Source: a virus (lineage: Duplodnaviria; Caudoviricetes). Taken from it: DNA of 64,000 nt. Numbering within the stretch: position 1 is the stretch's first letter; every line of letters begins with the position of its first letter. Positions 2,063 to 59,605 of this stretch are shown here, piece after piece. Below the pieces are notes generated by a model that was not told the origin of the DNA, did not search any database, and saw only the letters and a program-made list of their open reading frames with translations. The position numbers were made by a program, and so were the translations under genes. The DNA lies in IMG/VR virus record IMGVR_UViG_3300024046_000005, positions 3,842-67,841 of that record; one strand, written 5' to 3'.

Positions 2063-2763
2063 GCGATGGTTCCGATCGTGTTGCCCCGGGTGCCGCCCAC
2101 CCAGGTGATGAAGGAATCGCCCACGATGGCGCGGCCCGCTGATCGCCCCACAATGCCCGCATTGGCAACGCCAGTGGGATCGTTCGTGGTGCCACTGGCG
2201 CCCGTGGCGCCGTTCTCGCCCCAGGTGCCGCCGTAGCCGCCGGTGCCGCCCTTCGCGGTGTAGGGCGGGAAGCCGCCATCGGTTTGCGTTGTGCCCGCGC
2301 TGCCAGCGGCTCGGGTTTGCGACCCAGCGCTGTCAACACCGTTGCCCGTACCGCCCAAGCCCCCAGTAGCTGTTTTGAAACCGCCGCTGCCGTTGCGCAC
2401 GGTGGCGCTGCCGCCGGTGCCTCCCTGCCCCCCTGGCGCATAGATGTAGCCGAGGTTTTCGACGGTGACCGGCTGCGCGGCGGTCAACGCATCGCCGGAG
2501 GTGCTGCCGGATGCCGCAACGGCACTGACCATGGTGCTGGCGCCGATACGGATTTTCAGGCCGCCGGGAAACGATGCGGCGCCCGCAGTGGGGACGGACA
2601 GCGCGCCGATGGTGGGTGCGGTGATGTTGACGAGCAGCGCACTGATGCCGTTCCAGCCCGCAGCAATCGCCAATGAGCGCAAATTGGGGGCGTAGGCGTG
2701 GCTGGAGAGGGTGAGCACGAATTCCGGCTTTTTAGCCAGCAGGAACAGGACTGCGGGATGCAT
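2059..2763 (-). CDS. Glycine-rich putative receptor-binding adhesin (T-even gp38-like)
   Basis: VTVENLGYIYAPGGQGGTGG and further GGxGG motifs; last gene of the tail module. Confidence 0.55.
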   Translation of the reverse strand: MHPAVLFLLAKKPEFVLTLSSHAYAPNLRSLAIAAGWNGISALLVNITAPTIGALSVPTAGAASFPGGLKIRIGASTMVSAVAASGSTSGDALTAAQPVTVENLGYIYAPGGQGGTGGSATVRNGSGGFKTATGGLGGTGNGVDSAGSQTRAAGSAGTTQTDGGFPPYTAKGGTGGYGGTWGENGATGASGTTNDPTGVANAGIVGRSAGRAIVGDSFITWVGGTRGNTIGTIA

Positions 2764-3722
2764 CAGGACACCCCTCCACCGATCACGCAGTCGCTGGCCG
2801 AGGTGTAGAGCACGACGGCAGTACCGTAGGCCGCGAGCGAGGCGCTGGCCTTGGACGAACCATCGACCAGGCGCATGGTCATGCCCGAGCCAGACGTGAG
2901 GGTGATGGCACTGGCGCTGGTGTTGGTGATGGCGTAGCTCCCGCCCGCCGGGAACACGGATGCGGCGGGCATGGTGAATGCCGCGCTGCGCACGAGGTGC
3001 ATGCCGTTGTCCGCTATGGTGGGCGTGCCGCTGGTGGAGCCTGCGGCCAGCGTGATGGGTTGCCTTTCGTCAAGCGCGGCCTGCTGGGCGGCGGATACCG
3101 GCTTGTCAGCGTCGCTGGTGTTGTCCACGTTACCCAGGCCCACCAGGGCGGGCGATGGCGCGCCGCCGTCTTTGATGACGCCGCCGGTGATGCCGTCGAA
3201 CAGGGCGATATGCCCATCCTGCGCCGAGGGTGGGCCGCTGACGTAAGCGCTGGCGGGCAGGTAAGCGGCCTCCCACGCAGCGCCGCTGTACACGCGCATT
3301 TGATCGGACACGGTGTTGTAGTACAGGGCGCCTGTTTGCAGCGCCCCGCCCTGGTTGTCAGTGGCCGGGTCGCTGGATTTGTCACCGAGGTAGCGCTTGT
3401 CAAAATTCTGGTAGCTGTTGCCGGCGCTGGTGGCGCTGGCATTGGCCTCTGTGGCCTTGCTCGTAGCGATCCCGGCCTGCGTGACGGCCGTATCCTTGGC
3501 TGCCACGGCCACGTCCGCCGCATCGCCGGCCGTTCCAGCGCTTTCGTGGGCAGAGACGGCGTTCGTGTAGGTGGCCGCGATGGCGGCGTTGACCTGCGTG
3601 ACCAACGTGTCCTCGGACTGAAGGCGCGCAAACGCCTTGCTGTCGAATTCCGCCGGAGTGTCGGTCGGTAGCGGCGCGGGCGCCATGGGGTCGATGGTCG
3701 GCGGTGCAATGGGATTGGTCAT
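2763..3722 (-). CDS. Tail fibre/spike-like protein
   Basis: Ala/Thr-rich coiled segment, GALYYNT...MRVY and GLGNVDNTSDADKPVS motifs typical of phage fibres. Confidence 0.65.
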   Translation of the reverse strand: MTNPIAPPTIDPMAPAPLPTDTPAEFDSKAFARLQSEDTLVTQVNAAIAATYTNAVSAHESAGTAGDAADVAVAAKDTAVTQAGIATSKATEANASATSAGNSYQNFDKRYLGDKSSDPATDNQGGALQTGALYYNTVSDQMRVYSGAAWEAAYLPASAYVSGPPSAQDGHIALFDGITGGVIKDGGAPSPALVGLGNVDNTSDADKPVSAAQQAALDERQPITLAAGSTSGTPTIADNGMHLVRSAAFTMPAASVFPAGGSYAITNTSASAITLTSGSGMTMRLVDGSSKASASLAAYGTAVVLYTSASDCVIGGGVS

Positions 3723-4636
3723 GTCAGGCCCTCCAGTTCAAGGTCGCAGTCGGAATAGTCAAAGTAGGAAATCACGATGTCGAAGCTTTTGTAGAAGCCA
3801 TACACCGTGGTCGATTCGTAGCGGGTGGAGCCCATCCACAGGCATGCCCTGGCGCGTACGCTGGAGAGGAAGCGGTGCAGGGAGTCCACCTCGTCAGCGC
3901 CGAGCTGCAGCGTGAAGCTGGCGCGCTTGGCGAAATTGCGCTCGACGACCATCACGTCGCCGAAGTCGTTGCGCTCCTTGCGCGAGTAGTCCTGGATGCC
4001 CAGGCGCGCGCCGTACTTCACGCCCATGGAGAAGCGCCGCGCCTGGCCGAACAGGATCACGCCCACGCCGAGGTCTGCGGTGCCGGTGAAGTCGATGTAC
4101 AGATCCGCCGTGGGGTAGCTGGGCAGGTCGGTCAGGATGGCCTGTGTCGGCGAGCGGCGCTCCCCGAAGTACCAGGCCCACCAGCCCGACTCCAGCGGAT
4201 GGGCGCTCAGGTCGATGGTGCGGTCGTACACGTCCCCGGTGACCGGCGCGACAACCCGCGCACGCATGGCCGTGGCGCCGGAGAGATTGAGCGCGGCCAG
4301 CGCCGTGGCAGCACGGCCCGGGCGCAACTGGTAGCTGATCGCATCCGCCTGCTTGACTTGAGAGCTGACGGACTGGTCGAACGGCTTCCAGCGATTCGTG
4401 GCGCCGACTTCCTGCCAGTTGAGCACGTCCGCGCCGGGCGTGTTGCCGGTGTTGCCGTCCACCAGGCTTTCGTAGACCTTGTGCGCGGACACGACGATGA
4501 CGCGGTCGCCCTGGTCGTACGTGGTGTCGGCATCCCAGGCGTCGTAGTCCGTCTCGGGCACGTTGCAGTCGATCAGCATGGCGTCGGTGAGTGCGACGGG
4601 ATCGACAACGGTGATGGCGTAGGGGCCGGCTGTCAT
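3719..4636 (-). CDS. Minor tail / tail-tip protein
   Basis: Start reassigned to MTAGPYAIT at 4636, overlapping the tape-measure stop; directly follows the tape measure. Confidence 0.65.
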   Translation of the reverse strand: MTAGPYAITVVDPVALTDAMLIDCNVPETDYDAWDADTTYDQGDRVIVVSAHKVYESLVDGNTGNTPGADVLNWQEVGATNRWKPFDQSVSSQVKQADAISYQLRPGRAATALAALNLSGATAMRARVVAPVTGDVYDRTIDLSAHPLESGWWAWYFGERRSPTQAILTDLPSYPTADLYIDFTGTADLGVGVILFGQARRFSMGVKYGARLGIQDYSRKERNDFGDVMVVERNFAKRASFTLQLGADEVDSLHRFLSSVRARACLWMGSTRYESTTVYGFYKSFDIVISYFDYSDCDLELEGLT

Positions 4637-37586: not shown

Positions 37587-38951
37587 TCAAAAATCCTCCG
37601 CATACGTGTTCACAGCCGCCTTCTTGCCCGGCGCTGTAAGCGGCTGCGTCGATTCCGTCCAGCGCTGGTACTGGCCCTCGAAATGCAGCGCAACCTCCCC
37701 AGTCCGGCCGCCACGGGCCTTCGCAACATCCAGGCCGTTGAGCGTGTAGGCATCGTGCTTCTGGTGGCGCCACATCAGCATCACCACGTCGGCGTCCTCC
37801 TCGATGGCGCCAGACTCTTTCAGGTCGGCCAGCACCGGGCGGCCAGACATGCGCTTTTCCACCTCGCGGTTGAGCTGCGAAAGCGTCAGGATCGTGATGC
37901 CCAGTTGCTTGGCCAGCGACTTCAAGCCGCGCGAGATTTCTTCGAGCTGGTGATGGCGCGACAGCTTCGGGTTGGCAGAGCTGCATAGCTGGATGTAGTC
38001 GAGCACCAGCAGCTTGATGTCGTGCTTGCGCTTGAGCATTCGCGCCTTCGCAGCGATCTCCGGCAGCGTCATGGCCGCCTGCTGGTCGAAATACAGCGGC
38101 AGGCCGCGCATCCGTTCCACGGCTTCTGACAGGCGCGTCCACTCGTCATCGACCAACTTGCCCGTCTGGTAACGCTCGTAGTCGATCCGGCCAACGTTGC
38201 AGAGCGCGCGGTCGGTCATTTCCTCGTTCTCCATCTCCATCGAGAACATGGCCGCAGCGTGGCCGTCCATCGCCAAGTTGACCGCGATCTGCTCTGCAAG
38301 CGACGACTTGCCCACGCTCGGGCGCGCGGCCAGGATCATCTGCTTGCCGGGCTTGAGCCCACCCCCAAGCCTGCGGTCGAGCCCCGGGATGCGCGTCGGG
38401 ATACCCGGTTGAGTAACCCCATCGGCCAGCGCCTGGATACGGTCAATCGCACCCGCGACGTAGGCCTCGATGGATTGCGGCTGCGTGCGCGCGGCAGGCT
38501 GCGCAACACGCTCCAGGGTGGACTGTGCCTGTGCAATCCGGTCAACCACCGGCAGGGATTCGTCCGCCGCGATCCCGCGCACCTCGGCGGCGGCGCGCTG
38601 CAACTGACGGGCCAGCGCATGGTCGGCAACGATGGCCGCGTGCTGGCGCAGCACACGCAGGCCGACAAACGCCTGCGTGCACAGGTGCAATGCCGCCATG
38701 GCGTCGTCCGCATCGGCGGCGCGCAGCACCTCGTACACCGCAACCAGGTCAACGGGTTTGCCGGCCAGCACCAGCGTTTCGATCGCGCTCCACGCCGATG
38801 CGTACAGGCCCACCGCGAAGGACTCCGCGTGCAGCGTTTCTGCCACCGCGTCGTACGCCTCGACCCCGGCGACCAGCAGCGCGCCAATCACGCCGGCCTC
38901 GGCTTCTGGCGAGCAGTGCAGCAGCTCTGTCGGCAGGTCAAGCGGGTTCAT
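37587..38951 (-). CDS. dnaB: Replicative DNA helicase, DnaB family
   Basis: ILAARPSVGKS; FSMEM; LVLDYIQL; LSQLNREVEKR; DLKESGAIEEDADVV. Confidence 0.95.
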   Translation of the reverse strand: MNPLDLPTELLHCSPEAEAGVIGALLVAGVEAYDAVAETLHAESFAVGLYASAWSAIETLVLAGKPVDLVAVYEVLRAADADDAMAALHLCTQAFVGLRVLRQHAAIVADHALARQLQRAAAEVRGIAADESLPVVDRIAQAQSTLERVAQPAARTQPQSIEAYVAGAIDRIQALADGVTQPGIPTRIPGLDRRLGGGLKPGKQMILAARPSVGKSSLAEQIAVNLAMDGHAAAMFSMEMENEEMTDRALCNVGRIDYERYQTGKLVDDEWTRLSEAVERMRGLPLYFDQQAAMTLPEIAAKARMLKRKHDIKLLVLDYIQLCSSANPKLSRHHQLEEISRGLKSLAKQLGITILTLSQLNREVEKRMSGRPVLADLKESGAIEEDADVVMLMWRHQKHDAYTLNGLDVAKARGGRTGEVALHFEGQYQRWTESTQPLTAPGKKAAVNTYAEDF

Positions 38952-39864
38952 GGGCTTCCTCCTCGTGGCGTGCCGCGATGCGGGCGTCCAGCGCCTGCTT
39001 GCGCAGCAGCCCCTTCGATGTCCACTGCACCCCGCCGCCATCCTCGGCAAAGAACCACAGCCCGAACCAGCTGTCCTTCACGCAGTTGGCGAAGTGGGCG
39101 GGCCAGTCGCGGTAGCGCTTGGCGCGGTACTGCGCGTCGTCGGTGTAGCGCTCCCGGAACGCGATCCATGCGATCTGCAGCATCTCGTCGGTGATGCCGG
39201 CATCTGCCGCCCAGTTGCGGATCGCATGGCCATCCGGGACAGGCTTTGCGCCGACGGCTTTGCACTCGGCCAGGTAGGCCGACAGCGTGGTGTCCGGGCG
39301 TTTTGCCTTCGGCGGCTTGACGGCGGGAGGGGGCGGCGCGTTAGCGCTCTCCCCTTCTGAACGTAGTGAAGAAGGGGTATTACTCTTATCTGTATCTTTA
39401 TCTAGCGTGACATTGCGTGACATTGCGTGACATGCATTTGTCCCGTTGCCGTCCTCATTTGTCACGGCGCCATCGGTAGCCTCATTTTTAGTAGCATTCT
39501 TCTCGCGCTGGCGTTGGTCTCTCTTGCGTTCAGTAGCCGACCTCACGCCGCGCTCTACATCTCCAGCATCTTCCCTTTTGGGCTGCCGGGTATCCCAAGA
39601 TCGCAGCCTCATGCCATCCAGAACACGCCCCTGCATTGCCTCAAGAATTGCCGCAATCTGCTGTTCGTCACAGTCCAGCGCGCTCGCCAAATCTTCATGC
39701 GTGACAGTCGCGTGACCTCGCGTGACATTGCGTGACGCATCAACCATCAGGTGCAGGAAAACAGACAACACCAGAGAAATGGGTTGCTTTGAAACGCGCG
39801 CGACCGTCCGCCATTTCGGGTCATTGGGCATCTCATGCCACAGGCGCAGCCACTCGTTTGCCAT
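38938..39864 (-). CDS. Phage replication initiator
   Basis: WLRLWHEMPNDPKWRTVAR N-terminus; upstream of dnaB; RYRDWPAHFANCV C-terminus. Confidence 0.75.
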   Translation of the reverse strand: MANEWLRLWHEMPNDPKWRTVARVSKQPISLVLSVFLHLMVDASRNVTRGHATVTHEDLASALDCDEQQIAAILEAMQGRVLDGMRLRSWDTRQPKREDAGDVERGVRSATERKRDQRQREKNATKNEATDGAVTNEDGNGTNACHAMSRNVTLDKDTDKSNTPSSLRSEGESANAPPPPAVKPPKAKRPDTTLSAYLAECKAVGAKPVPDGHAIRNWAADAGITDEMLQIAWIAFRERYTDDAQYRAKRYRDWPAHFANCVKDSWFGLWFFAEDGGGVQWTSKGLLRKQALDARIAARHEEEAHEPA

Positions 39865-40079
39865 CAGCGCCTCGCTTTCCGTGCGGCAAATCGCGTCGCC
39901 CTGCGCGCCTCGACCTGGGCATACATTTCACGCTGCGCCCGACGCATTCCGTCACGATCACCCACGACATGGGCGATCTGCATATCCAGGTCAGCGACGA
40001 TGGCAGATGCCTTGCGGCGCTCGTCAATCAAGCGCACAAGGGTTGCGTCTTGCGCTGTGGGGCGGGGGATGGCCTGCAT
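39864..40079 (-). CDS. Small hypothetical protein
   Basis: 71-aa coupled ORF. Confidence 0.55.
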   Translation of the reverse strand: MQAIPRPTAQDATLVRLIDERRKASAIVADLDMQIAHVVGDRDGMRRAQREMYAQVEARRATRFAARKARR

Positions 40080-43000
40080 CAGGCGACCTCCAACTCCAGC
40101 ACATCGAACAGCGATGGCATCGTGGCCTCGCGCTCTGCCGCCCGCAGGTAATGCACTTGATCCATAAAGTACCCCGCATTCAGCTCAGAACCGCCGCCGC
40201 GACGGCCTTTGAGGATGGCTCGGTAGGGCACGGTGCCCAGGCCGCAGAATGGGTCATAGACCAGCTCGCCGGGATTGCTGTAGCGCTCGATCAGCCGATC
40301 CACGATGCCAAACTGAAGAGGGCAGATGTGTTTCTCCACAGCGCGTTTCGATTGGTCACTGTTCAACGTCAACATACGCGGCACGTCGTGCCACACGTCA
40401 GGATGGTGACTACCAGGTGCCAAGCTCATGAAGGTGGACGGCAGTGCGCCACGGGCTTCCAGTTCCTCGCCAATGCGAACATGAAAGTCGTAGTCATAAA
40501 TCTGCTGCAAGCTGTACTTGGTGAACAGGCTGGCCAGCTTGTCGGGGCCAAGTCCTGCCAGTTCATCCGCCGTGATCTGGCGGTTGCCGCCATCGCGCCA
40601 GAAAGCGTGGGCGTCAATCTGCCAATGTGCTCGGGTGTATTCGTCCTTGGACTTCTTCACAGGCACGTCGGCATAGCCCTTTGTGCGGTCGGTCTGCGGC
40701 TTACGGAACAGCACGATGTATTCGGGCGAGCCAACGCCCATCTTGGTGCCGTCCTTGCACTGCTCGCTCCACCCCAAGCGGTAGGTCTGGTTGTTCTCGC
40801 GCACAACGTCAGTCACGACCGTGATAAGGCCCATGTAGTCGAAACCATGCTTGCACCCGTGCATGATGGCTTCGCAGTGAAACGGGCTGACCGTGGGCGC
40901 ACCAGCGCCGGTCACGTTGCCAAACAAGATGCGATCCTTGACGTGGCAGGCGTAGATGCGGCCTGGCTTCAAGATGCGCAGCAACTCGGGCGTGAGGTGA
41001 TCCATTTGCGCCCAGAAGTGGTCATTGCTTTCGGTATGGCCGAAGTCGTTGTAGCTGGGGCTGTATTCGTAGTGGTTGGCAAACGGGATGGACGTGACGA
41101 TCAGGTCAACGTGGTTCTCCGGCTGGAGCTTTGCTTCTTCAACGCAGTCGTTGTTCGCCACGGTGAACAGGTCGCTCTTGACCTCGATGCGCTGGATTCC
41201 GATGGAGCGCGCCAAGGTTTCTTGCATGGCGAGATGGTTCAATCCGTATTGCTTGATGATGCCGGTCATGTTTTTCACCATTTCGTCGTGTTGTGCCCAC
41301 TTCGTTTGCAGGGTGCGCAAGACCTCGCGCTCGGCCTCGCTGTAGACGATGTGAATGTCACAGGCTCGCTCTTGGCCGTAACGCTGGATGCGATGGACGG
41401 CCTGAATCAGGTCATTGAACTTGTAGGTCACGCCGACAAAGACAGCCTTGTTGCATTGCTGTAGATTCAAGCCTTGGCCCAGCATCACCGGCTTGCCGAT
41501 CAGCGCGTATGTCTTGCGGTCACGCCACTCTTGAATGCGGCGTTCAGCCTCTTCTGTGGTCAGAGATCCGTGCACCGAAGAGAACGACAGTCCACGAGCG
41601 GTCAGGGTTTGCTCGATGGCGTCCTGTTCGGCGTTGAGGTCGCACCAGATGACGATCTGGTCAGATACTCGATTGCCCTCTTCAGTAGATCTGGGTTGTC
41701 CAGAAAATGGCCCAGGCCGAAGTTGCACCGATGGCATAGCAGCCCCCTGACCTTCCCTGTCGAATGGCAGTGATCCACCGACAAAGACCTCTCCGCCTTG
41801 CCTTGCTGGCGAACTCCCGTTCGACTCACGCCACATATCGCGCATCCGCCGTTCTGCGCACTCAGCATCTCCGCATACTGCTTCGAGGTGATCCCGAACT
41901 CGGCTTTCAGCCTGCCCGACCTTTTCACATGAGGGTTCTTGGCATTGAACTCCCTTGCTTGCGCTTTCGTTTTCTCCCGATGCTCCGCATCGAGTGCATA
42001 CCGCTCTCGGCGTTTTCTGGATCGCTCTGCCTTCTCCGCTTCTGTCAATACCTTCCGCTGGTACGTCTTTAGGTACTCGGCCATGTACGCCTTTCTCCGC
42101 GCCTGCTTCTCGCCCGAAGCCAGATGCTTCGTCGCGTGGTAGTGCGCCAACTTGCGCGCACGCTCCCGCTCCTTGTTCTGGTCGTGATAAGCCCTGTTGT
42201 ATGCAGACTTGGCTTCCTTTGAGATACCCATCGATAACACTCCCCATGGCGGCAATTCGGGCAGGCAGGCTGTCGCGCTTCTCTGCGGCTGCGGCACTCA
42301 AACTCAGCGCAGGGTCTTGGAACATCAGCGCCTGGCCGTCGCGGTCGGCACCAGCCAGCGTGTAGTCCGTGGGCACCTCGTGATAGACCACTTCGATAGG
42401 CGGCAGGTCATAGCCTTCATCGCTGTAGCCCAGGTCGCTGGGGTATTGAATGAACACCGCCCAACTCGATACCCACAACCAGAATTCTTCGGTCTTGTGT
42501 GGGTACAAGGTCAAGTTTCCTGCTTTCTCGCTGTCGCGCTGGAAGAAGCGCGTCAGGGCTTGGCCCGTATCCATCACGCCAAGGAACCCGGCATAGTGGA
42601 TCAGCTCCTTGAAGCGGTTGGGGCTTGGCGTTGCCGTGTTGACCAGCTTGAATTCCACTGACTCGAACAGAGGCAAGAACTCTTGATAGGTCTTGCTGCC
42701 GAAGCTGCGCAGCACGCTAGCTTCATCCAAGCTCACAGCCTTGAACAAGGCAGGATCGAGCTTGCCGTCGCGGACGGTTTCGTAGTTGGTGATGTAGAGG
42801 GACTGGCCCGGAACAATCTCGGCGGCAGCGCGGATGAAGCTCAGGTTGATGCCCAACATTGCCGCATCGCGGATCAGCTCTTGCCGCACCCCCAGCGGGC
42901 ACACGATCAAGCCTAGGCCACCCTCAGCGCCAATGATCTGCCGCAGCCACTCGCACTGCATGACGGACTTGCCCAAGCCGAACTTTGCGAAGATGGCGCG

Positions 43001-43141
43001 ATTGCCGCCATGTACCGCCCAGCGCACGATGTCGCGCTGGAACGAGAACAGCTTGGGGTGGATCGCCGCAGGCTCCAAGCTCACGCCTTTGAAGCTTGCC
43101 ATCTTGATCTTGGCCCGCAGGAAATCTTCATATGTACCCAT
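40079..43141 (-). CDS. SF2 (SNF2-like) helicase fused to an N4-C/N6-A DNA methyltransferase, with a ~185-codon insertion
   Basis: GLGKS, LDEAS, TATPSPN, GQGLNLQ...HRIQRYGQ helicase motifs; VTSIPF and YDPFCGLGT MTase motifs. Confidence 0.88.
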   Translation of the reverse strand: MGTYEDFLRAKIKMASFKGVSLEPAAIHPKLFSFQRDIVRWAVHGGNRAIFAKFGLGKSVMQCEWLRQIIGAEGGLGLIVCPLGVRQELIRDAAMLGINLSFIRAAAEIVPGQSLYITNYETVRDGKLDPALFKAVSLDEASVLRSFGSKTYQEFLPLFESVEFKLVNTATPSPNRFKELIHYAGFLGVMDTGQALTRFFQRDSEKAGNLTLYPHKTEEFWLWVSSWAVFIQYPSDLGYSDEGYDLPPIEVVYHEVPTDYTLAGADRDGQALMFQDPALSLSAAAAEKRDSLPARIAAMGSVIDGYLKGSQVCIQQGLSRPEQGAGACAQVGALPRDEASGFGREAGAEKGVHGRVPKDVPAEGIDRSGEGRAIQKTPRAVCTRCGASGENESASKGVQCQEPSCEKVGQAESRVRDHLEAVCGDAECAERRMRDMWRESNGSSPARQGGEVFVGGSLPFDREGQGAAMPSVQLRPGPFSGQPRSTEEGNRVSDQIVIWCDLNAEQDAIEQTLTARGLSFSSVHGSLTTEEAERRIQEWRDRKTYALIGKPVMLGQGLNLQQCNKAVFVGVTYKFNDLIQAVHRIQRYGQERACDIHIVYSEAEREVLRTLQTKWAQHDEMVKNMTGIIKQYGLNHLAMQETLARSIGIQRIEVKSDLFTVANNDCVEEAKLQPENHVDLIVTSIPFANHYEYSPSYNDFGHTESNDHFWAQMDHLTPELLRILKPGRIYACHVKDRILFGNVTGAGAPTVSPFHCEAIMHGCKHGFDYMGLITVVTDVVRENNQTYRLGWSEQCKDGTKMGVGSPEYIVLFRKPQTDRTKGYADVPVKKSKDEYTRAHWQIDAHAFWRDGGNRQITADELAGLGPDKLASLFTKYSLQQIYDYDFHVRIGEELEARGALPSTFMSLAPGSHHPDVWHDVPRMLTLNSDQSKRAVEKHICPLQFGIVDRLIERYSNPGELVYDPFCGLGTVPYRAILKGRRGGGSELNAGYFMDQVHYLRAAEREATMPSLFDVLELEVA
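41602..42231 (-). CDS. Endonuclease VII-family homing endonuclease nested out of frame in the helicase-methylase
   Basis: FGITSKQYAEMLSAQNGGCAICG...LSVDHCHSTGKVRGLLCHRCNFGLGHFLDNPDLLKRAIEYL. Confidence 0.9.
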   Translation of the reverse strand: MGISKEAKSAYNRAYHDQNKERERARKLAHYHATKHLASGEKQARRKAYMAEYLKTYQRKVLTEAEKAERSRKRRERYALDAEHREKTKAQAREFNAKNPHVKRSGRLKAEFGITSKQYAEMLSAQNGGCAICGVSRTGVRQQGKAERSLSVDHCHSTGKVRGLLCHRCNFGLGHFLDNPDLLKRAIEYLTRSSSGATSTPNRTPSSKP

Positions 43142-43142
43142 A

Positions 43143-43325
43143 TCACCCCCTCGGCGGCGTAGCCAGCCACGGCCATGCGTAGCCCTTCGGGGCGTTAGGC
43201 ATGGATGCGTTGGTGATAGGGCCATCCACGGGCGCCGTGAGTTTTACGCGGGTGATGGATGGGATGCCTTGGGGTGCAAGAGTTGCAGCCTTGCGTCCGT
43301 TGGAGTTGAGAACTTTTTGGGTCAT
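43143..43325 (-). CDS. Small hypothetical protein
   Basis: 60-aa ORF coupled to the cII-like gene. Confidence 0.4.
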   Translation of the reverse strand: MTQKVLNSNGRKAATLAPQGIPSITRVKLTAPVDGPITNASMPNAPKGYAWPWLATPPRG

Positions 43326-43690
43326 TGCACGACCCCATCCAGTTGCTGCAACATAGCCTGCAGTTGGGCCTTCATGGCCTCTACCTGCTTGATGCCCTTG
43401 TTCTGCAGCTCAGGCGCCAGGAAGCGTTCAACGAGGTACAGCACAGGGGTTTTGTCCCCGGTCTTCTCGATGTAGCGTTCCAGGCTGTCCACACTGAAAT
43501 GACGCGACGCGTCTTCGGATATCTGCACAGACAAGTTGCTAGGCGCTTGGTCGAGGTCGATGGCAACGCGCTTAAGCCCGCGCTGGTAGACGCCACTGGC
43601 GACGCATTCGCGCAAAGAGCCGTACCGGTCAATCAGGCCGGGCTCGAAGTTGAGGGTCAATTGGGCAGGCTGGATAACTGCTGATGGCAT
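43322..43690 (-). CDS. CII-like regulator
   Basis: Downstream of cro; QLTLNFEPGL...KRVAIDLDQAPSNLS. Confidence 0.6.
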   Translation of the reverse strand: MPSAVIQPAQLTLNFEPGLIDRYGSLRECVASGVYQRGLKRVAIDLDQAPSNLSVQISEDASRHFSVDSLERYIEKTGDKTPVLYLVERFLAPELQNKGIKQVEAMKAQLQAMLQQLDGVVQ

Positions 43691-44142: not shown

Positions 44143-44379
44143 TCATGCATCGGTGCCCTCCCCTGCCCTTGCGGGTTCGCTGCGGGATGGTGCAGTAGCT
44201 GCATCAGCATCAGCGCCTTCCAGCGCATCAGGGCGCACCGCCCTCAAATACATCATTCGCGCCTTGGGAATGCCGCTTTTCTTCCAGTCGCTGACCGACG
44301 GCATACGCACCCCGAACATGCGGGCCACCTCGGCGGTGTCACCCAGCGCCTCAATGACCTTGATTGCGTGTGGATTCAT
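44143..44379 (-). CDS. cro: Cro-like repressor
   Basis: VIEALGDTAEVARMFGVRMPSVSDWKKSGIPKAR; divergent from cI. Confidence 0.85.
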   Translation of the reverse strand: MNPHAIKVIEALGDTAEVARMFGVRMPSVSDWKKSGIPKARMMYLRAVRPDALEGADADAATAPSRSEPARAGEGTDA

Positions 44380-44386
44380 GCCCCGC

Positions 44387-44450
44387 ATTGTCAGGCATAA
44401 CTAACCATCAAGTCAACCATAACTTACATCACTATTGTTAGGATTGCCTT
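44387..44450. promoter_or_regulatory. OR/PR region
   Basis: Minus-strand TTGACT-N18-GACAAT; operator ATTGTCAGGCATAACTAACCAT (44387-44408) plus two weaker copies. Confidence 0.7.
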
Positions 44451-45161
44451 ATGTCGCTATCCGACCGGCTGCACCTTGTTTTTGAAAAAAACCCCAAGCT
44501 CACCCAGGCAGGGCTGGCGCGTGCGTGCGACATATCCCGTGCGTCCGTGAACGCTTGGGTCAGAGGCCCCACGGAAAGCATCGACGGCAAGTACCTCACT
44601 ACTGCGGCCGCATACCTCGGAGTGACACCGCACTGGCTTTCTACTGGGCGCGGCGACATGGTTGCTGCTTCCACCACCTCCAACGTCATCGCCCTGCACC
44701 CAGACGACAACTTGCCGGATAACATGGTGCAGATTCCCGAGTACCGCGTGAAATTCAGCGGCGGCAATGGCACCGTGGCCATGACCTACGAGTTGGCCGA
44801 AGAAGTAGAGCCAGCCACCTACCGCCTATCGTGGATGCAGCGCATGCGCCTGAACCCGGAGAAACTCAAGCGCTTCAAGGTCAAGGGCGACAGCATGGAG
44901 CCCCTGCTGTACAGCGGCGACTCCGTGCTGGTGAACCTAGCAGAAAACGACATCAAAGAAATATTGGACGGCAAGGTGTACGCCATCCGCTACGGCAACG
45001 AGCTACGGGTCAAACGCCTGTACCGACGCCTCGATGGCGGCCTGACCCTGCGCAGCTACAACCCCGAGCACAAAGACGAAGACCTGACACCCGATCTGGT
45101 GGCCCAGCACATCACCGTGATTGGCCGTGTCAGGGACAAAAGCGGTGCGGGCGGGCTGTAG
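44451..45161 (+). CDS. cI: CI repressor (HTH plus S24 peptidase)
   Basis: TQAGLARACDISRASVNAW; VKGDSMEP...VKRL. Confidence 0.93.
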   Translation: MSLSDRLHLVFEKNPKLTQAGLARACDISRASVNAWVRGPTESIDGKYLTTAAAYLGVTPHWLSTGRGDMVAASTTSNVIALHPDDNLPDNMVQIPEYRVKFSGGNGTVAMTYELAEEVEPATYRLSWMQRMRLNPEKLKRFKVKGDSMEPLLYSGDSVLVNLAENDIKEILDGKVYAIRYGNELRVKRLYRRLDGGLTLRSYNPEHKDEDLTPDLVAQHITVIGRVRDKSGAGGL

Positions 45162-51334: not shown

Positions 51335-51708
51335 ACATTGACCTGGCCCGCCACCTGCGCCAAGTGGACAAGCAAGATGCATTCGACGCATGGATGCAGC
51401 AGCAAGCAGCGGACGAATGCCAGCGCGCAAAGAAAGTGCTGGCCGACCCGCAAGTATGGGATTGGCACGGCCCGGCGCACGTCCTGCAAACCACAGAGCA
51501 AACCCCCTACAGCGCCGACGAAGCACTGCTGGAGGCACGCGAATACAGCGCCGAGGTCAACCGGCTCTATGCAGAGCTGCTGGCCAGCGACGCGGCCAAG
51601 GAACTGCGCGCTGCAGTCGCCGCAGACTGGGCGGATCGGATGTGGGAAACGAGAACTCAGTGGGAAATAGAGGCTGCTGCGCTACAGCATCCATCAGCGA
51701 ACTCTTGA
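51316..51708 (+). CDS. Hypothetical phage protein
   Basis: RBS AGGAG; 130 aa. Confidence 0.65.
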   Translation: MHTDLVDIDLARHLRQVDKQDAFDAWMQQQAADECQRAKKVLADPQVWDWHGPAHVLQTTEQTPYSADEALLEAREYSAEVNRLYAELLASDAAKELRAAVAADWADRMWETRTQWEIEAAALQHPSANS

Positions 51709-51785
51709 GAAGGTGCTTTCACGTAAATCCCCCAAGTCATTTGGTGCGGATTTTTCATAGAGCGCACATAAACCAAACAGGCCAC

Positions 51786-52895
51786 ATGAACACGAAGCAC
51801 GTTATTTCCGTCTCAGGCGGCAAGGACAGTACGGCGACCCTGCTGCTAGCGCTGGAGCGTTGCCCCGCCGGCTCCGTGGTGCCCATCTTCTGCGACACGG
51901 GCAACGAACACGCACAGACCTACGCTTATCTCGATTACCTCGAAGGCGCGCTGGGCGTGAAGGTTCACCGGCTGCGCGCGGACTTCACCAAGGAACTGGC
52001 GGCGAAGCGCCGATTCATCGCCCGCGACGTGCGCCACGCGCGCGAATACCGCAAGGTGCCAAAGACCGACCGCGCCGGGAATCCGGTGTGGCTGCGCGAC
52101 AAGGCCGGGGCGGTGCGCCTGTTCCCGGTTCTGGATGACGATGGCCAGCCCACGGGCGAGCTGGCGCCGCGCCAGGCGTGGGGGTGGGATGGTGGCCGCA
52201 GGGTGCGCTGGTCGAACAAGGCCAAGCGGCGCGCGCTGTCGGTGATGTACCCGAGCGGCAATCCGTTCCTCGATCTGTGCATGTGGAAGGGGCGCTTTCC
52301 CTCGCGCAAGGCGCAGTTCTGCACCGAGGAACTGAAGCGCAACATGGCCGTGGGCTTTCAACTCGATTTGATGGAAGCCGGGCACCGCGTGGTCAGTTGG
52401 CAGGGGGTGCGCCGCGACGAATCGGAGAACCGCCGCCACGCCAAAAAGGTGGAGCGCGTGGGGCGCGGGCTGTGGATCATGCGGCCCATCGTGGCATGGA
52501 CGGCAAAGCAGGTTTTCGACTTCGCAGCCGCCCGCCACATCCACCCCAACCCGCTCTATCTGCAAGGCATGAGCCGGGTGGGCTGTATGCCTTGCATCAA
52601 TTGCAAAAAGGCCGAGCTGCGCCAGATCGCCGCGCGCTGGCCGGAGCATCCAGAGCGCATTGCCGACTGGGAGCGGATAGTCGGGATGTGCAGCAAGCGC
52701 GGCTTCTCCACCTTTATGACTGCTGGCAACATTCCCGAAAAGGATAGACGTCTAATATTCGCCGACCTGAATATCTGGGCGCGCATTTTGTGGAGCAAGA
52801 CCAGCCGGGGCGGAAAGCAGTTCAACCTGCTGGACGAGGTGGAATACGACGGCGCTGGCGGTTGTAGTAGCTCCTACGGCCTCTGCGAGCAATAG
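51786..52895 (+). CDS. PAPS-reductase-family (PP-loop) protein
   Basis: ISVSGGKDSTA, CDTGNEH, QGVRRDESENR, GMSRVGCMPCI. Confidence 0.9.
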   Translation: MNTKHVISVSGGKDSTATLLLALERCPAGSVVPIFCDTGNEHAQTYAYLDYLEGALGVKVHRLRADFTKELAAKRRFIARDVRHAREYRKVPKTDRAGNPVWLRDKAGAVRLFPVLDDDGQPTGELAPRQAWGWDGGRRVRWSNKAKRRALSVMYPSGNPFLDLCMWKGRFPSRKAQFCTEELKRNMAVGFQLDLMEAGHRVVSWQGVRRDESENRRHAKKVERVGRGLWIMRPIVAWTAKQVFDFAAARHIHPNPLYLQGMSRVGCMPCINCKKAELRQIAARWPEHPERIADWERIVGMCSKRGFSTFMTAGNIPEKDRRLIFADLNIWARILWSKTSRGGKQFNLLDEVEYDGAGGCSSSYGLCEQ

Positions 52896-57630: not shown

Positions 57631-57868
57631 CGGAACCGAAGGAACCCACGGCCAAGCAATGGAAGCGCCGCGCGCTGCAGGAGGCGCGGGAAGCCATTGT
57701 GTGGGCGTTGGAGCAGCAGGGGTGATCGTCCATCCTCATGCTTGGGGCGATGGTAGCCCCCATCTCGGTACATCCCACGGAAACTGCCCAACGTACCGAA
57801 ACCCCTAGCCCCACGCGCACTTACCAACCGAGCCCCGCCATTGAGTGGGGCTTTTCTTTGGGACGGAA

Positions 57869-59605
57869 ATGCTCACACCCCAATTCATTTTGGCGTTGTC
57901 CGCCAAGCTGGTCATCGACCTGTTCGCCGGCGGCGGCGGCGCATCCACCGGCATTGAGCAGGCCATCGGCCGCCATGTGGACGTGGCGATCAACCATGAC
58001 GCCGACGCCATCGGCATGCACAAGGTCAACCATCCGCAGACCCGGCACTACCGGGCGGACGTTTGGGAAGTTGACCCGCTGGTCGTCACGCACGGCACCC
58101 CCGTGGGCCTGCTGCACGCCTCGCCTGACTGCACCCACCACAGCCAGGCCTTGGGCGGCCAGCCGCGCAGCCAGGAAATCCGATCCCTCGCCTGGGTAGT
58201 GCACCGCTGGGCCGGCAAAGCCCGGCCGGATGTCATCACCCTGGAGAACGTCGAGCAAATGCTGCTGTGGGCTCCGCTGGTCGCCAAGCGCGATCCAGCC
58301 ACCGGCCGCGTCATCACGCTGGACAAGGTGACCGACCCGGCCACGGGCAAGACTGCATACCGCGTGGCCGATCCCGGCGAAGTCGTTCCCAGGCACAACC
58401 AATTTCTAGTGCCCTGCAAGAAGCGCGTGGGCCACAACTGGCGCAGGTTCGTGGAAGGGCTGCGCGCCATGGGCTACAAGGTCGAATGGCGCGTCATCTG
58501 CAATGCCACGCTGGGCGCGCACAGCACACGCACGCGCCTGTACATGGTGGCGCGCTGCGATGGCCTGCCCATCGTATGGCCAGAGCAGACGCACGCCCGC
58601 AAACCCACCAGCAAGCTCAAGGCCTTCCGGCCGGCGGCCGAATGCATTGACTGGAGCATCAAGGGCACCAGCATCTTCAACCGCAAGAAGCCGCTGGCCG
58701 AGGCCACGATGCACCGCATCGCCTACGGAATGCGCAAGTTCGTGCTGGAGAGCGATGACCCGTACATCGTAGAGAACGTGGCGCACGCTTTCACGCCTGT
58801 GACGCACACCCGGGACATCGCCTACGACGTGGCCGACTCGATGCGCACCATCACCACTGCCAAGGGCGGGGAAACGGCACTCATGTCCGCCTATCTGGTG
58901 CAGATGGGGTATGGGGAGCGAGACGGCCAAGCGCCGCGTGTCCTTGATCCTGGCCTGCCGCTAGGCACGGTCACGGCGGGTGGCAACAAGTTCGGCATCG
59001 GCACCGCGTTCATGGTGCAGGCCAACGGCGGCTTCAACACAACGCCCGCCCGCGATCTGCGCGATGGCATGTCCACCGTGACCACCAGCGGCAGCCAGCA
59101 GCAGCTTGTGACAGCGCATCTGACGACGCTGCGCCACCACAGCACGGGCCGCGATCTGCGCGAACCCATTGCGACCGTGGCAGCCGGCGGCGAGCACCAC
59201 GCCCTGGTGCAGTACGAACTCAGCCAGGACGACGAAGCAGGCGCGCTGCGCTGCGCTGCGTTCTTGATGCGCTATCACGCCAACGGCGGCCAGTGGGCCG
59301 ACCTGCGCGACCCGATGACCACCGTCACCACGCACGACCGCCTGGCGCTGGTGACGGTGTGGCTCAAGGGCGAACCGTGGGTGATCGTGGACATCACGCT
59401 GCGCATGTTGGTGCCGCGCGAACTCTACAACGCCCAGGACTTCCCGCCCGGCTACGTGATCGACCGCACCGCCAGCGGGAAGCCGCTGACGAAGACCGCC
59501 CAGGTGCGCATGGCGGGCAACAGCGTTAGCCCGTTGCCCATGCGGCTGATCGTAGCTGCGAACTACTCCGAGGCTGCCAACGGCAAAGCCCGCAAGGTGG
59601 CATAG
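57869..59605 (+). CDS. DNA cytosine-5 methyltransferase
   Basis: DLFAGGGG (I), ASPDC (IV), LENV (VI), RTRLY (VIII), RMLVPREL, MAGNSV (X). Confidence 0.92.
   Translation: MLTPQFILALSAKLVIDLFAGGGGASTGIEQAIGRHVDVAINHDADAIGMHKVNHPQTRHYRADVWEVDPLVVTHGTPVGLLHASPDCTHHSQALGGQPRSQEIRSLAWVVHRWAGKARPDVITLENVEQMLLWAPLVAKRDPATGRVITLDKVTDPATGKTAYRVADPGEVVPRHNQFLVPCKKRVGHNWRRFVEGLRAMGYKVEWRVICNATLGAHSTRTRLYMVARCDGLPIVWPEQTHARKPTSKLKAFRPAAECIDWSIKGTSIFNRKKPLAEATMHRIAYGMRKFVLESDDPYIVENVAHAFTPVTHTRDIAYDVADSMRTITTAKGGETALMSAYLVQMGYGERDGQAPRVLDPGLPLGTVTAGGNKFGIGTAFMVQANGGFNTTPARDLRDGMSTVTTSGSQQQLVTAHLTTLRHHSTGRDLREPIATVAAGGEHHALVQYELSQDDEAGALRCAAFLMRYHANGGQWADLRDPMTTVTTHDRLALVTVWLKGEPWVIVDITLRMLVPRELYNAQDFPPGYVIDRTASGKPLTKTAQVRMAGNSVSPLPMRLIVAANYSEAANGKARKVA

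Follow-up and report, generated by a model that had tools for sequence, protein, structure and literature searches.

The window analysed here is a stretch of 64,000 nucleotides from a virus of the Caudoviricetes (Duplodnaviria), positions 3,842 to 67,841 of IMG/VR record IMGVR_UViG_3300024046_000005. On its minus strand, an open reading frame (ORF) at 40079..43225, of 1048 amino acids counted from the first ATG, encodes an SNF2-like helicase fused to an N6/N4 DNA methylase. A second gene, of the Endonuclease VII family, lies inside this host ORF, on the same strand but in another frame. Homologues of the host protein align only from its residue ~29-32, which makes the ATG at 43141 the probable start codon. 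The features of the locus are the following, with the basis of each in brackets:

40079..43225, minus strand: host ORF, SNF2-like helicase and N6/N4 methylase, probable start 43141 (Pfam, PHROGs, homologues).
42232..43141, minus strand: helicase N-lobe (RecA-like lobe 1), of the clade of the nearest insertion-free relatives (alignments, nucleotide sliding window, AlphaFold2).
42240..42245, minus strand: Shine-Dalgarno-like GGGGAG, 8 nucleotides 5' of the nuclease ATG (sequence).
41602..42231, minus strand: nested Endonuclease VII-family gene, frame +1 (PF02945, phrog_2914, PDB sequence matches, substitution pattern).
41660..42208, minus strand: host-frame reading of the insertion (host residues 340-522), the link between the lobes, rich in G, R, E, A and S and stop-free (alignments).
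41722..41844, minus strand: catalytic and zinc core of the nuclease (alignment to Hpy99I and T4 endonuclease VII).
41348..41659, minus strand: donor-type 3' flank, C-lobe residues 523 to ~626, of another clade than the rest of the gene (identities and sliding window).
40166..41110, minus strand: N6/N4 DNA methylase domain (PF01555, residues 706-1020).

In the host ORF, Pfam recognizes Helicase_C at residues 521-617 followed by N6_N4_Mtase at residues 706-1020, and PHROGs gives phrog_16, 'DNA helicase' (1.4e-126). The protein belongs to a family of helicase/methylases found in actinobacteriophages (Gorpy gp73, SiSi gp65, Tiff81) and in many uncultured viral contigs. It is 59-83% identical to its homologues, nearly all of which have a length of ~830-860 residues.

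Since 43225-42231 = 994 = 3x331+1, the nested ORF, of 209 amino acids, is in frame +1 relative to the host. Its residues 107-191 match Pfam Endonuclease_7 (PF02945) with an E value of 1.8e-24 (85.8 bits, the cut-off being 23.6), and PHROG families of endonuclease VII also match it, the best being phrog_2914 at 1.9e-34. Compared with PDB sequences, the protein finds Hpy99I (3.9e-8) and T4 endonuclease VII (2e-3). The core residues C130-x2-C133, D153-H154-x-H156 and C166-x2-C169-N170 are conserved in 10/10 aligned lineages; we take their zinc-binding and catalytic roles to be those known from T4 endonuclease VII structures. By its profile and by these motifs, the nested gene is a member of the Endonuclease VII (His-Me finger) family, and its product a predicted nuclease. 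The N-terminal ~110 residues form an extra basic region, conserved within the clade of this nuclease. A Shine-Dalgarno-like core is present at -14..-6 of the nuclease start in 10/12 lineages, compared with 17% of background positions. In all lineages, a stop closes the nuclease frame 3-46 codons 5' of its ATG, making a frameshift fusion to the N-lobe less likely. It is plausible, judging from these signals, that the nuclease is translated on its own, from its own Shine-Dalgarno site and ATG.

Alignment with insertion-free homologues defines an insertion of 184 codons (552 nucleotides, host residues about 339-522), placed between ...SVIDGYLKGSQ and QIVIWCDLN. This location is a short variable spacer leading from a helix (EKRDS..ARIA..V) to the strand (QIVIWCDLN) with which the second RecA-like lobe begins. 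The insert is missing from ~75 of 80 viral-contig homologues, from gp73 of Arthrobacter phage Gorpy and from the closest relative (L003), whose flanks are 88-93% identical to those of the window. The nuclease ATG is found at the 5' edge of the insert and the conserved nuclease end, AIEYL, at its 3' edge, while the last 19 codons of the nuclease, like its stop codon, come from reading the conserved host QIVIWCDLNAEQ block in +1, 3' of the insertion. The host ORF is unbroken across the insertion in the window and in all 13 other lineages considered below, so that no gene is split into two ORFs. The preliminary description of this DNA, made from its letters only, had proposed an Endonuclease VII gene in another frame of the same strand inside a helicase-methylase ORF, ~185 inserted codons free of stops, and a nuclease end coinciding with the resumption of the helicase. 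The +1 frame and PF02945 match, the 184 codons obtained by alignment and the reading of the nuclease tail from the conserved host block bear it out in these three respects.

No host-frame stop is seen over the nuclease, where 6.5-7 are expected. In a permutation of synonymous codons that kept the nuclease protein and its own codon composition, the mean was 6.5 host-frame stops and the zero-stop outcome appeared in 1 of 20,000 permutations (P = 5e-5). When codons were resampled according to host gene usage, the probability of zero host-frame stops was 5e-4. The third frame of the same strand, which served as control, contains 7 stops, against 5.7-7.1 expected. For a stop to appear in the host frame, a nuclease codon ending in T must be followed by one starting with AA, AG or GA. 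The first 190 nuclease codons (to AIEYL) include 26 that end in T and 59 that start with AA, AG or GA, and in no case does one of the former stand directly before one of the latter. The host frame is under selection against stops. That a stop-free run of this length is unlikely without selection had already been stated, and can now be given a value, P between 5e-5 and 5e-4.

The arrangement is widespread, being found in 13 other lineages. A protein search with the nuclease retrieved a clade of ~27 clusters, 49-74% identical over the full length. Contigs of nine clusters carry the gene in the window register and at the same position in the helicase, and their host frame is open into recognisable N-lobe and C-lobe. 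In these nine lineages, with a guanine-cytosine (GC) content of 0.49-0.59, 5-10 host-frame stops were expected and none was observed (permutation P <= 6e-4), the control frame being as expected. Three metagenome contigs (L181, L182 and L189) represent a more distant, helicase-only subfamily, again with the same site, the same register and an open host frame; permutation gave P <= 6e-4 for L181 and P = 3e-3 for L189. The end of its contig cuts the nuclease of L182, which was kept outside the permutation test, leaving 12 lineages tested in this register. When metagenome and genome contigs were scanned with the nuclease, most matches were distant free-standing Endonuclease VII genes; the nested-helicase cases gained in this way are L181, L182 and L189. 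Four high-GC loci with open shadow frames were treated as background, as no host gene is present there.

A further case is found in Gordonia phage Squiddly (MN096370), whose helicase gp64 contains, at the same inter-lobe site and with the host frame open, a 39%-identical nuclease:

L001:3001-3531 (record positions 42083-42613), frame +2: unannotated Endonuclease VII gene of 176 amino acids in annotated helicase gp64 (L001:2072-3949) of Squiddly (MN096370).

Gordonia phage Malisha (OP434458) gives an equally good match to the window nuclease, underlying an annotated helicase, and there too the presumed nested gene is unannotated. The register of Squiddly is different, the nuclease being in host +2 (the host in nuclease +1). 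Host-frame stops are naturally rare in that register (P(no stop) 0.46-0.55), so Squiddly alone proves little. The nucleases of L189 and Squiddly, 45% identical, occupy the same helicase site in different registers (host in nuclease +2 and +1, respectively), which implies separate insertions or later compensating indels.

The preliminary description had named frequent host-frame stops in homologous insertions as the observation that would speak against it, and none of the 13 other lineages (0/13) has one. As 5-10 stops are expected and none is present in a dozen diverged lineages, we conclude that openness is selected and not a by-product of composition.

The two frames differ in constraint. 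In ten aligned lineages, the fraction of differing sites at the three nuclease codon positions is 0.33/0.30/0.54, and amino-acid identities average 57% in the nuclease frame, as opposed to 34% in the host frame. Substitutions thus track the nuclease codon pattern, and it is the nuclease frame that is constrained, whereas the host-frame peptide appears to evolve nearly freely, save for the ban on stops. At E <= 10, Pfam recognized no family and no Hint domain in the host-frame insert, the one hit, to PHD, being due to chance. A search with the insert peptide (host residues 335-525) against 5.8 billion proteins found no relatives; its divergence is too rapid, and those relatives that bear the insert are on short contigs. 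Disorder-promoting residues amount to 75% of the insert, compared with 54% of the rest of the protein. In the AlphaFold2 model, the predicted local distance difference test (pLDDT) score is below 50 at residues 338-519 and 72-95 in the flanking lobes, but the alignment held 48 sequences, with the insert in 9, and the low score may partly reflect this shallow depth. The insert peptide is predicted to be a disordered loop joining the helicase lobes.

Information about mobility was obtained from the region 3' of the insert. Compared with L003, the window protein is 88% identical in the N-lobe, 44% at residues 523-630, 86% after residue 630 and 93% in the methylase. Compared with the clade of L041 and Gorpy, the corresponding values are 62-66%, 69-80%, 47-50% and 74-75%. 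A nucleotide sliding window places the switches between clades at the insert (~41660) and at ~41350. The mosaic is common to the window and to L165/L166, its closest nuclease lineage, and the set compared contains no insertion-free allele that combines first-clade flanks with a second-clade C-lobe. L167 provides a second, independent mosaic case, in a host clade 43-47% identical to that of the window. Its empty relatives (L274-L278) are 77-82% identical to it, with 80-93% identity elsewhere and 51-53% over the 105 residues 3' of the insert. According to these comparisons, the nuclease seems to move in company with the adjacent helicase lobe, and the mosaic flank is what homing with asymmetric co-conversion would leave. 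This supports indirectly the mobility of the homing element that had been proposed from the window only: presence of the insert varies among close relatives, and a donor-type flank adjoins it.

In L271:1943-4979, an Endonuclease VII relative of 186 amino acids (37% identical) is encoded on its own, between an SNF2 helicase gene and a separate N6/N4 methylase gene. This free-standing state may be the origin of the nested form.

With a probability of roughly 0.8, we think that the nested gene of the window encodes a homing endonuclease of the Endonuclease VII (His-Me finger) type, that this gene is mobile or was so until recently and is established in the inter-lobe linker without an intron or intein, and that the host is read through it as a loop. 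The 552-nucleotide insert keeps the frame and is stop-free, and ribosomes would thereby read straight through it. The product would be a full-length helicase-methylase bearing a disordered loop of ~184 residues, presumably tolerated by the helicase protein. The nuclease would be produced separately, in the +1 frame. It could then cut empty alleles near the conserved QI(I/V)(I/L)WCDLN-coding block, and double-strand-break repair would transfer a copy of the insert to the recipient, along with ~310 bp of the helicase sequence downstream of it. Selection against host-frame stops argues that ribosomes do read the insert in the host frame, as such selection would serve no purpose for an insert that was removed by splicing or bypass. 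Of the three mechanisms offered in the preliminary description, we thus keep dual coding with a tolerated loop, supported by stop avoidance and by the 14 lineages, and regard splicing and bypass as disfavoured.

Several points weigh against this interpretation, besides the shallow alignment behind the predicted loop. The lineages share ancestry, so that 14 open frames out of 14 are not 14 independent events, and the search was seeded by nuclease similarity, which under-samples copies that have decayed or carry host-frame stops. One low-coverage contig (L177:1-1601) is open through the nuclease and has a host-frame stop at 1053, within the C-lobe; this stop may reflect an error of assembly or a host gene in decay. 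Ordinary recombination between the conserved EKRDS and SEAERE blocks, instead of nuclease-driven co-conversion, could account for the mosaic C-lobe. Moreover, every lineage found keeps an intact nuclease and none is visibly decaying, which is at least as compatible with long-term maintenance as with a homing cycle of invasion, decay and loss.

We also raise, tentatively, a variant that we regard as possible but doubtful. The mobile unit might be a cassette of ~0.9 kb, made of the nuclease and the ~105-residue core of the downstream RecA2 lobe, which would replace the resident lobe of a divergent helicase-methylase gene. Such a cassette would bring its own compatible, perhaps cleavage-immune 'exon' and, by avoiding stops, could persist as a stable dual-coding module without a cycle of invasion, decay and loss. 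If true, this cassette-type replacement would have been seen twice, in host clades 43-47% identical.

Long-term maintenance is also the core of a rival explanation, by which the nuclease is a domesticated, vertically kept gene that serves the phage, for example as a branched-DNA resolvase or as a weapon excluding co-infecting relatives. The overlap would then be stable and the insert-less alleles would arise by loss. All 14 lineages (14/14) have an intact nuclease ORF with its catalytic residues despite identities down to 38-49%, no decaying copy was seen, the nuclease frame is under purifying selection, and phage annotations include Endonuclease VII members that are ordinary resolvases. The count of intact copies, however, comes from a search biased to intact copies, and relatives 77-93% identical in their flanks vary in the presence of the insert in two separate host clades. 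In both clades a foreign-type tract stands beside the insert, which loss cannot yield, and the relative in L271 is free-standing between helicase and methylase genes, as free-standing homing endonucleases are. We consider domestication unlikely.

An unrecognised self-splicing intron, or other RNA processing, might instead remove the insert, the open host frame being incidental. Many phage homing endonucleases are intron-borne, and divergent introns can evade covariance models. Nevertheless, Rfam at E <= 10 found no intron at 40000-43400, its four matches being due to chance (three microRNA or long non-coding RNA models and a ribosomal-protein leader). In addition, the nuclease ORF fills the insert and overruns its 3' end, leaving no space for a ribozyme core, and host-frame stop avoidance in more than 10 lineages would be left unexplained. 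Removal at the RNA level is in our opinion very improbable.

Two specific candidates were rejected. A group I or group II intron-encoded endonuclease was discarded, with no intron family match and no ribozyme core around the ORF. An intein was discarded as well, with no Hint family at E <= 10 and no N-terminal Cys/Ser, TxxH or C-terminal HN + Cys/Ser/Thr visible in the host-frame insert; the lack of intein signatures reported from the first inspection therefore holds.

Public sequencing runs were also compared with the window. Several ant-metagenome DNA runs of 2018, from which the window DNA may originate, contain the insert-bearing form, with DNA identical to window 40000-43300, and a metatranscriptome library of 2022 (X3) contains an 11.4-kb contig identical to the same region, with the insert present and no joint. 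No empty allele or spliced form was seen in the assembled contigs of these DNA and RNA-library runs. As the sequences are assembled contigs and an RNA library can contain DNA, they demonstrate neither transcription nor lack of splicing.

We give hardly any credit to the idea that the frame is open by chance in GC-rich DNA, or that the host gene is already dead. The window has 62% GC and many long spurious ORFs, some free-standing high-GC homologues show open shadow frames, and stops are naturally rare in the other register (host in nuclease +1), with P(no stop) of 0.46-0.55 in Squiddly and 0.08-0.17 in the terminase intein of L162 described below. In contrast, the register of the window (host in nuclease +2) predicts 5-10 stops, and 0 are found in the 12 lineages tested, including those of 49-51% GC, with the control frame always at its expected count. 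A dead host gene is contradicted by the strong conservation of the flanking helicase and methylase sequence.

Finally, a translational hop over the insert, or a frameshift, giving a loop-less helicase or a fusion of N-lobe and nuclease, can be practically dismissed: T4 gene 60 does couple a mobile-element insertion to a bypass of 50 nucleotides, but we know of no precedent for a hop of 552, bypass would remove the need for an open frame, and a fusion is opposed by the closed nuclease frame upstream of the ATG in every lineage and by its own Shine-Dalgarno site in most.

As a whole, the window resembles a temperate tailed phage, with genes for a tape measure protein, portal, capsid, large terminase, DnaB and an S24/HTH repressor. 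The repressor forms a divergent pair with a small Cro-like ORF at 44143-45161. DnaB is located at 37587-39864, where the ORF upstream of it is replication-protein-like and has no Pfam match. A protein with a PAPS-reductase domain is encoded at 51390-52895 and a C-5 cytosine methylase at 57845-59605; as the latter is present besides the N6/N4 methylase, the phage has two DNA methylases.

The locus shows how a selfish nuclease gene can be housed in a working gene without an intron or intein, provided that the frame is kept, stops are avoided and the resulting peptide is a disordered loop in a tolerant linker. The family offers a clean quantitative case, with 5-10 stops expected in its register and none in a dozen diverged lineages. 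It also has a practical consequence for annotation, since nested genes are routinely missed, as is the one hidden under the gp64 helicase of Squiddly. When 'unrecognisable' insertions are met in phage helicases, methylases, polymerases or inteins, all frames should be read. We regard the locus as a natural test bed for the evolution of overlapping genes and for co-conversion in homing.

The window element belongs to a kind of hidden endonuclease insertion that is already published. The publication of Arsenault, Gosselin and Gogarten (Genes 2025; PMC11855218) deals with endonucleases concealed out of frame in genes of this family, in the ShiLan domain and in Pacc40 gp60, the latter being a true homologue of the window host protein. 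The preliminary description had called the strategy poorly described, a fair wording, but the novelty does not stand, given this publication for the same gene family. As in the window, the ShiLan and Pacc40 cases consist of a same-strand, out-of-frame endonuclease in a phage ORF, for a methylase or helicase-methylase, whose frame is kept open, with no detectable intron or intein features, an in-frame peptide predicted to be disordered and a scattered presence among close relatives (PMC11855218). The kind is defined by the shared architecture and not by common descent. The nucleases are set apart by family assignment, Endonuclease VII (PF02945) in the window as opposed to an I-HmuI-like HNH nuclease in ShiLan and a PacI/AP2-like one in Pacc40 (PMC11855218). 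The sites also differ, the window insertion being in the inter-lobe linker before QIVIWCDLN and that of Pacc40 after PSDI in the N-lobe, ~55 residues upstream. The window nuclease is in host +1, whereas the ShiLan one is in the 'third frame', and most lineages studied here have a Shine-Dalgarno-like site, whereas leaderless GTG initiation was proposed for the ShiLan kind (PMC11855218). A statistical test of stop avoidance is given here and absent from that paper. The GSQV at the start of the window insert weakly resembles the SDQIV that follows it, recalling a remark in the ShiLan paper, but the resemblance is too weak and too inconsistent across lineages, and we made no use of it.

Other insertions in the same genes were observed. 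True inteins are present in this helicase-methylase family at a methylase site, between EKHV and CPLQF, in Pacc40 (L180:5102-9127, gp60) and in L067. The family is thus a hotspot with at least three invasion sites: the N-lobe after PSDI (Pacc40), the inter-lobe Endonuclease VII site (window) and the EKHV-CPLQF intein site. A further insertion of ~350 residues is found in L075.

Inteins overprinted by Endonuclease VII genes resemble the window element in that the same nuclease family lies over a host frame that must stay open. They differ in that the carrier self-splices from the protein, and in that the nuclease is in host +2, the register where stops are naturally rare. As the window insert has no Hint domain, its shadow peptide should remain in the mature helicase. 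We observed one such intein in L162:1525-3930, a large-terminase gene with an intein (C...VVSHN, followed by T) and a nested Endonuclease VII ORF of 198 amino acids at 2415-3011. The middle ~190 codons of this intein are an out-of-frame reading of the Endonuclease VII gene, and the intein frame is open. The architecture of L162 matches one reported in bioRxiv 10.1101/2025.01.02.630785, and a 2026 preprint describes such a case in a cyanobacterial dnaX intein.

Free-standing homing endonucleases of phages, such as the T4 seg and mob genes, MobA with gene 60, mobE in Aeh1 nrdA and F-CphI (PMC2988022, PMC6083498), share with the window nuclease the lack of an intron or intein, the association with a conserved DNA-metabolism gene and the co-conversion of flanking markers; F-CphI also has the Endonuclease VII catalytic motif. 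They sit between genes, however, or split their host into two ORFs, while the ORF of the window host is unbroken and dual-coded. T4 endonuclease VII (gp49) and Hpy99I resemble the window nuclease by sequence in the beta-beta-alpha-Me catalytic and zinc core. The former is a junction resolvase and the latter a restriction enzyme, both encoded by ordinary genes, whereas the window nuclease is nested and has an extra N-terminal region.

In summary, the element described here differs from the known cases in having an Endonuclease VII-type nuclease without an intein, an inter-lobe site, a +1 register with active stop avoidance, starts led by Shine-Dalgarno sites, and a repeated co-transfer of the adjacent lobe.

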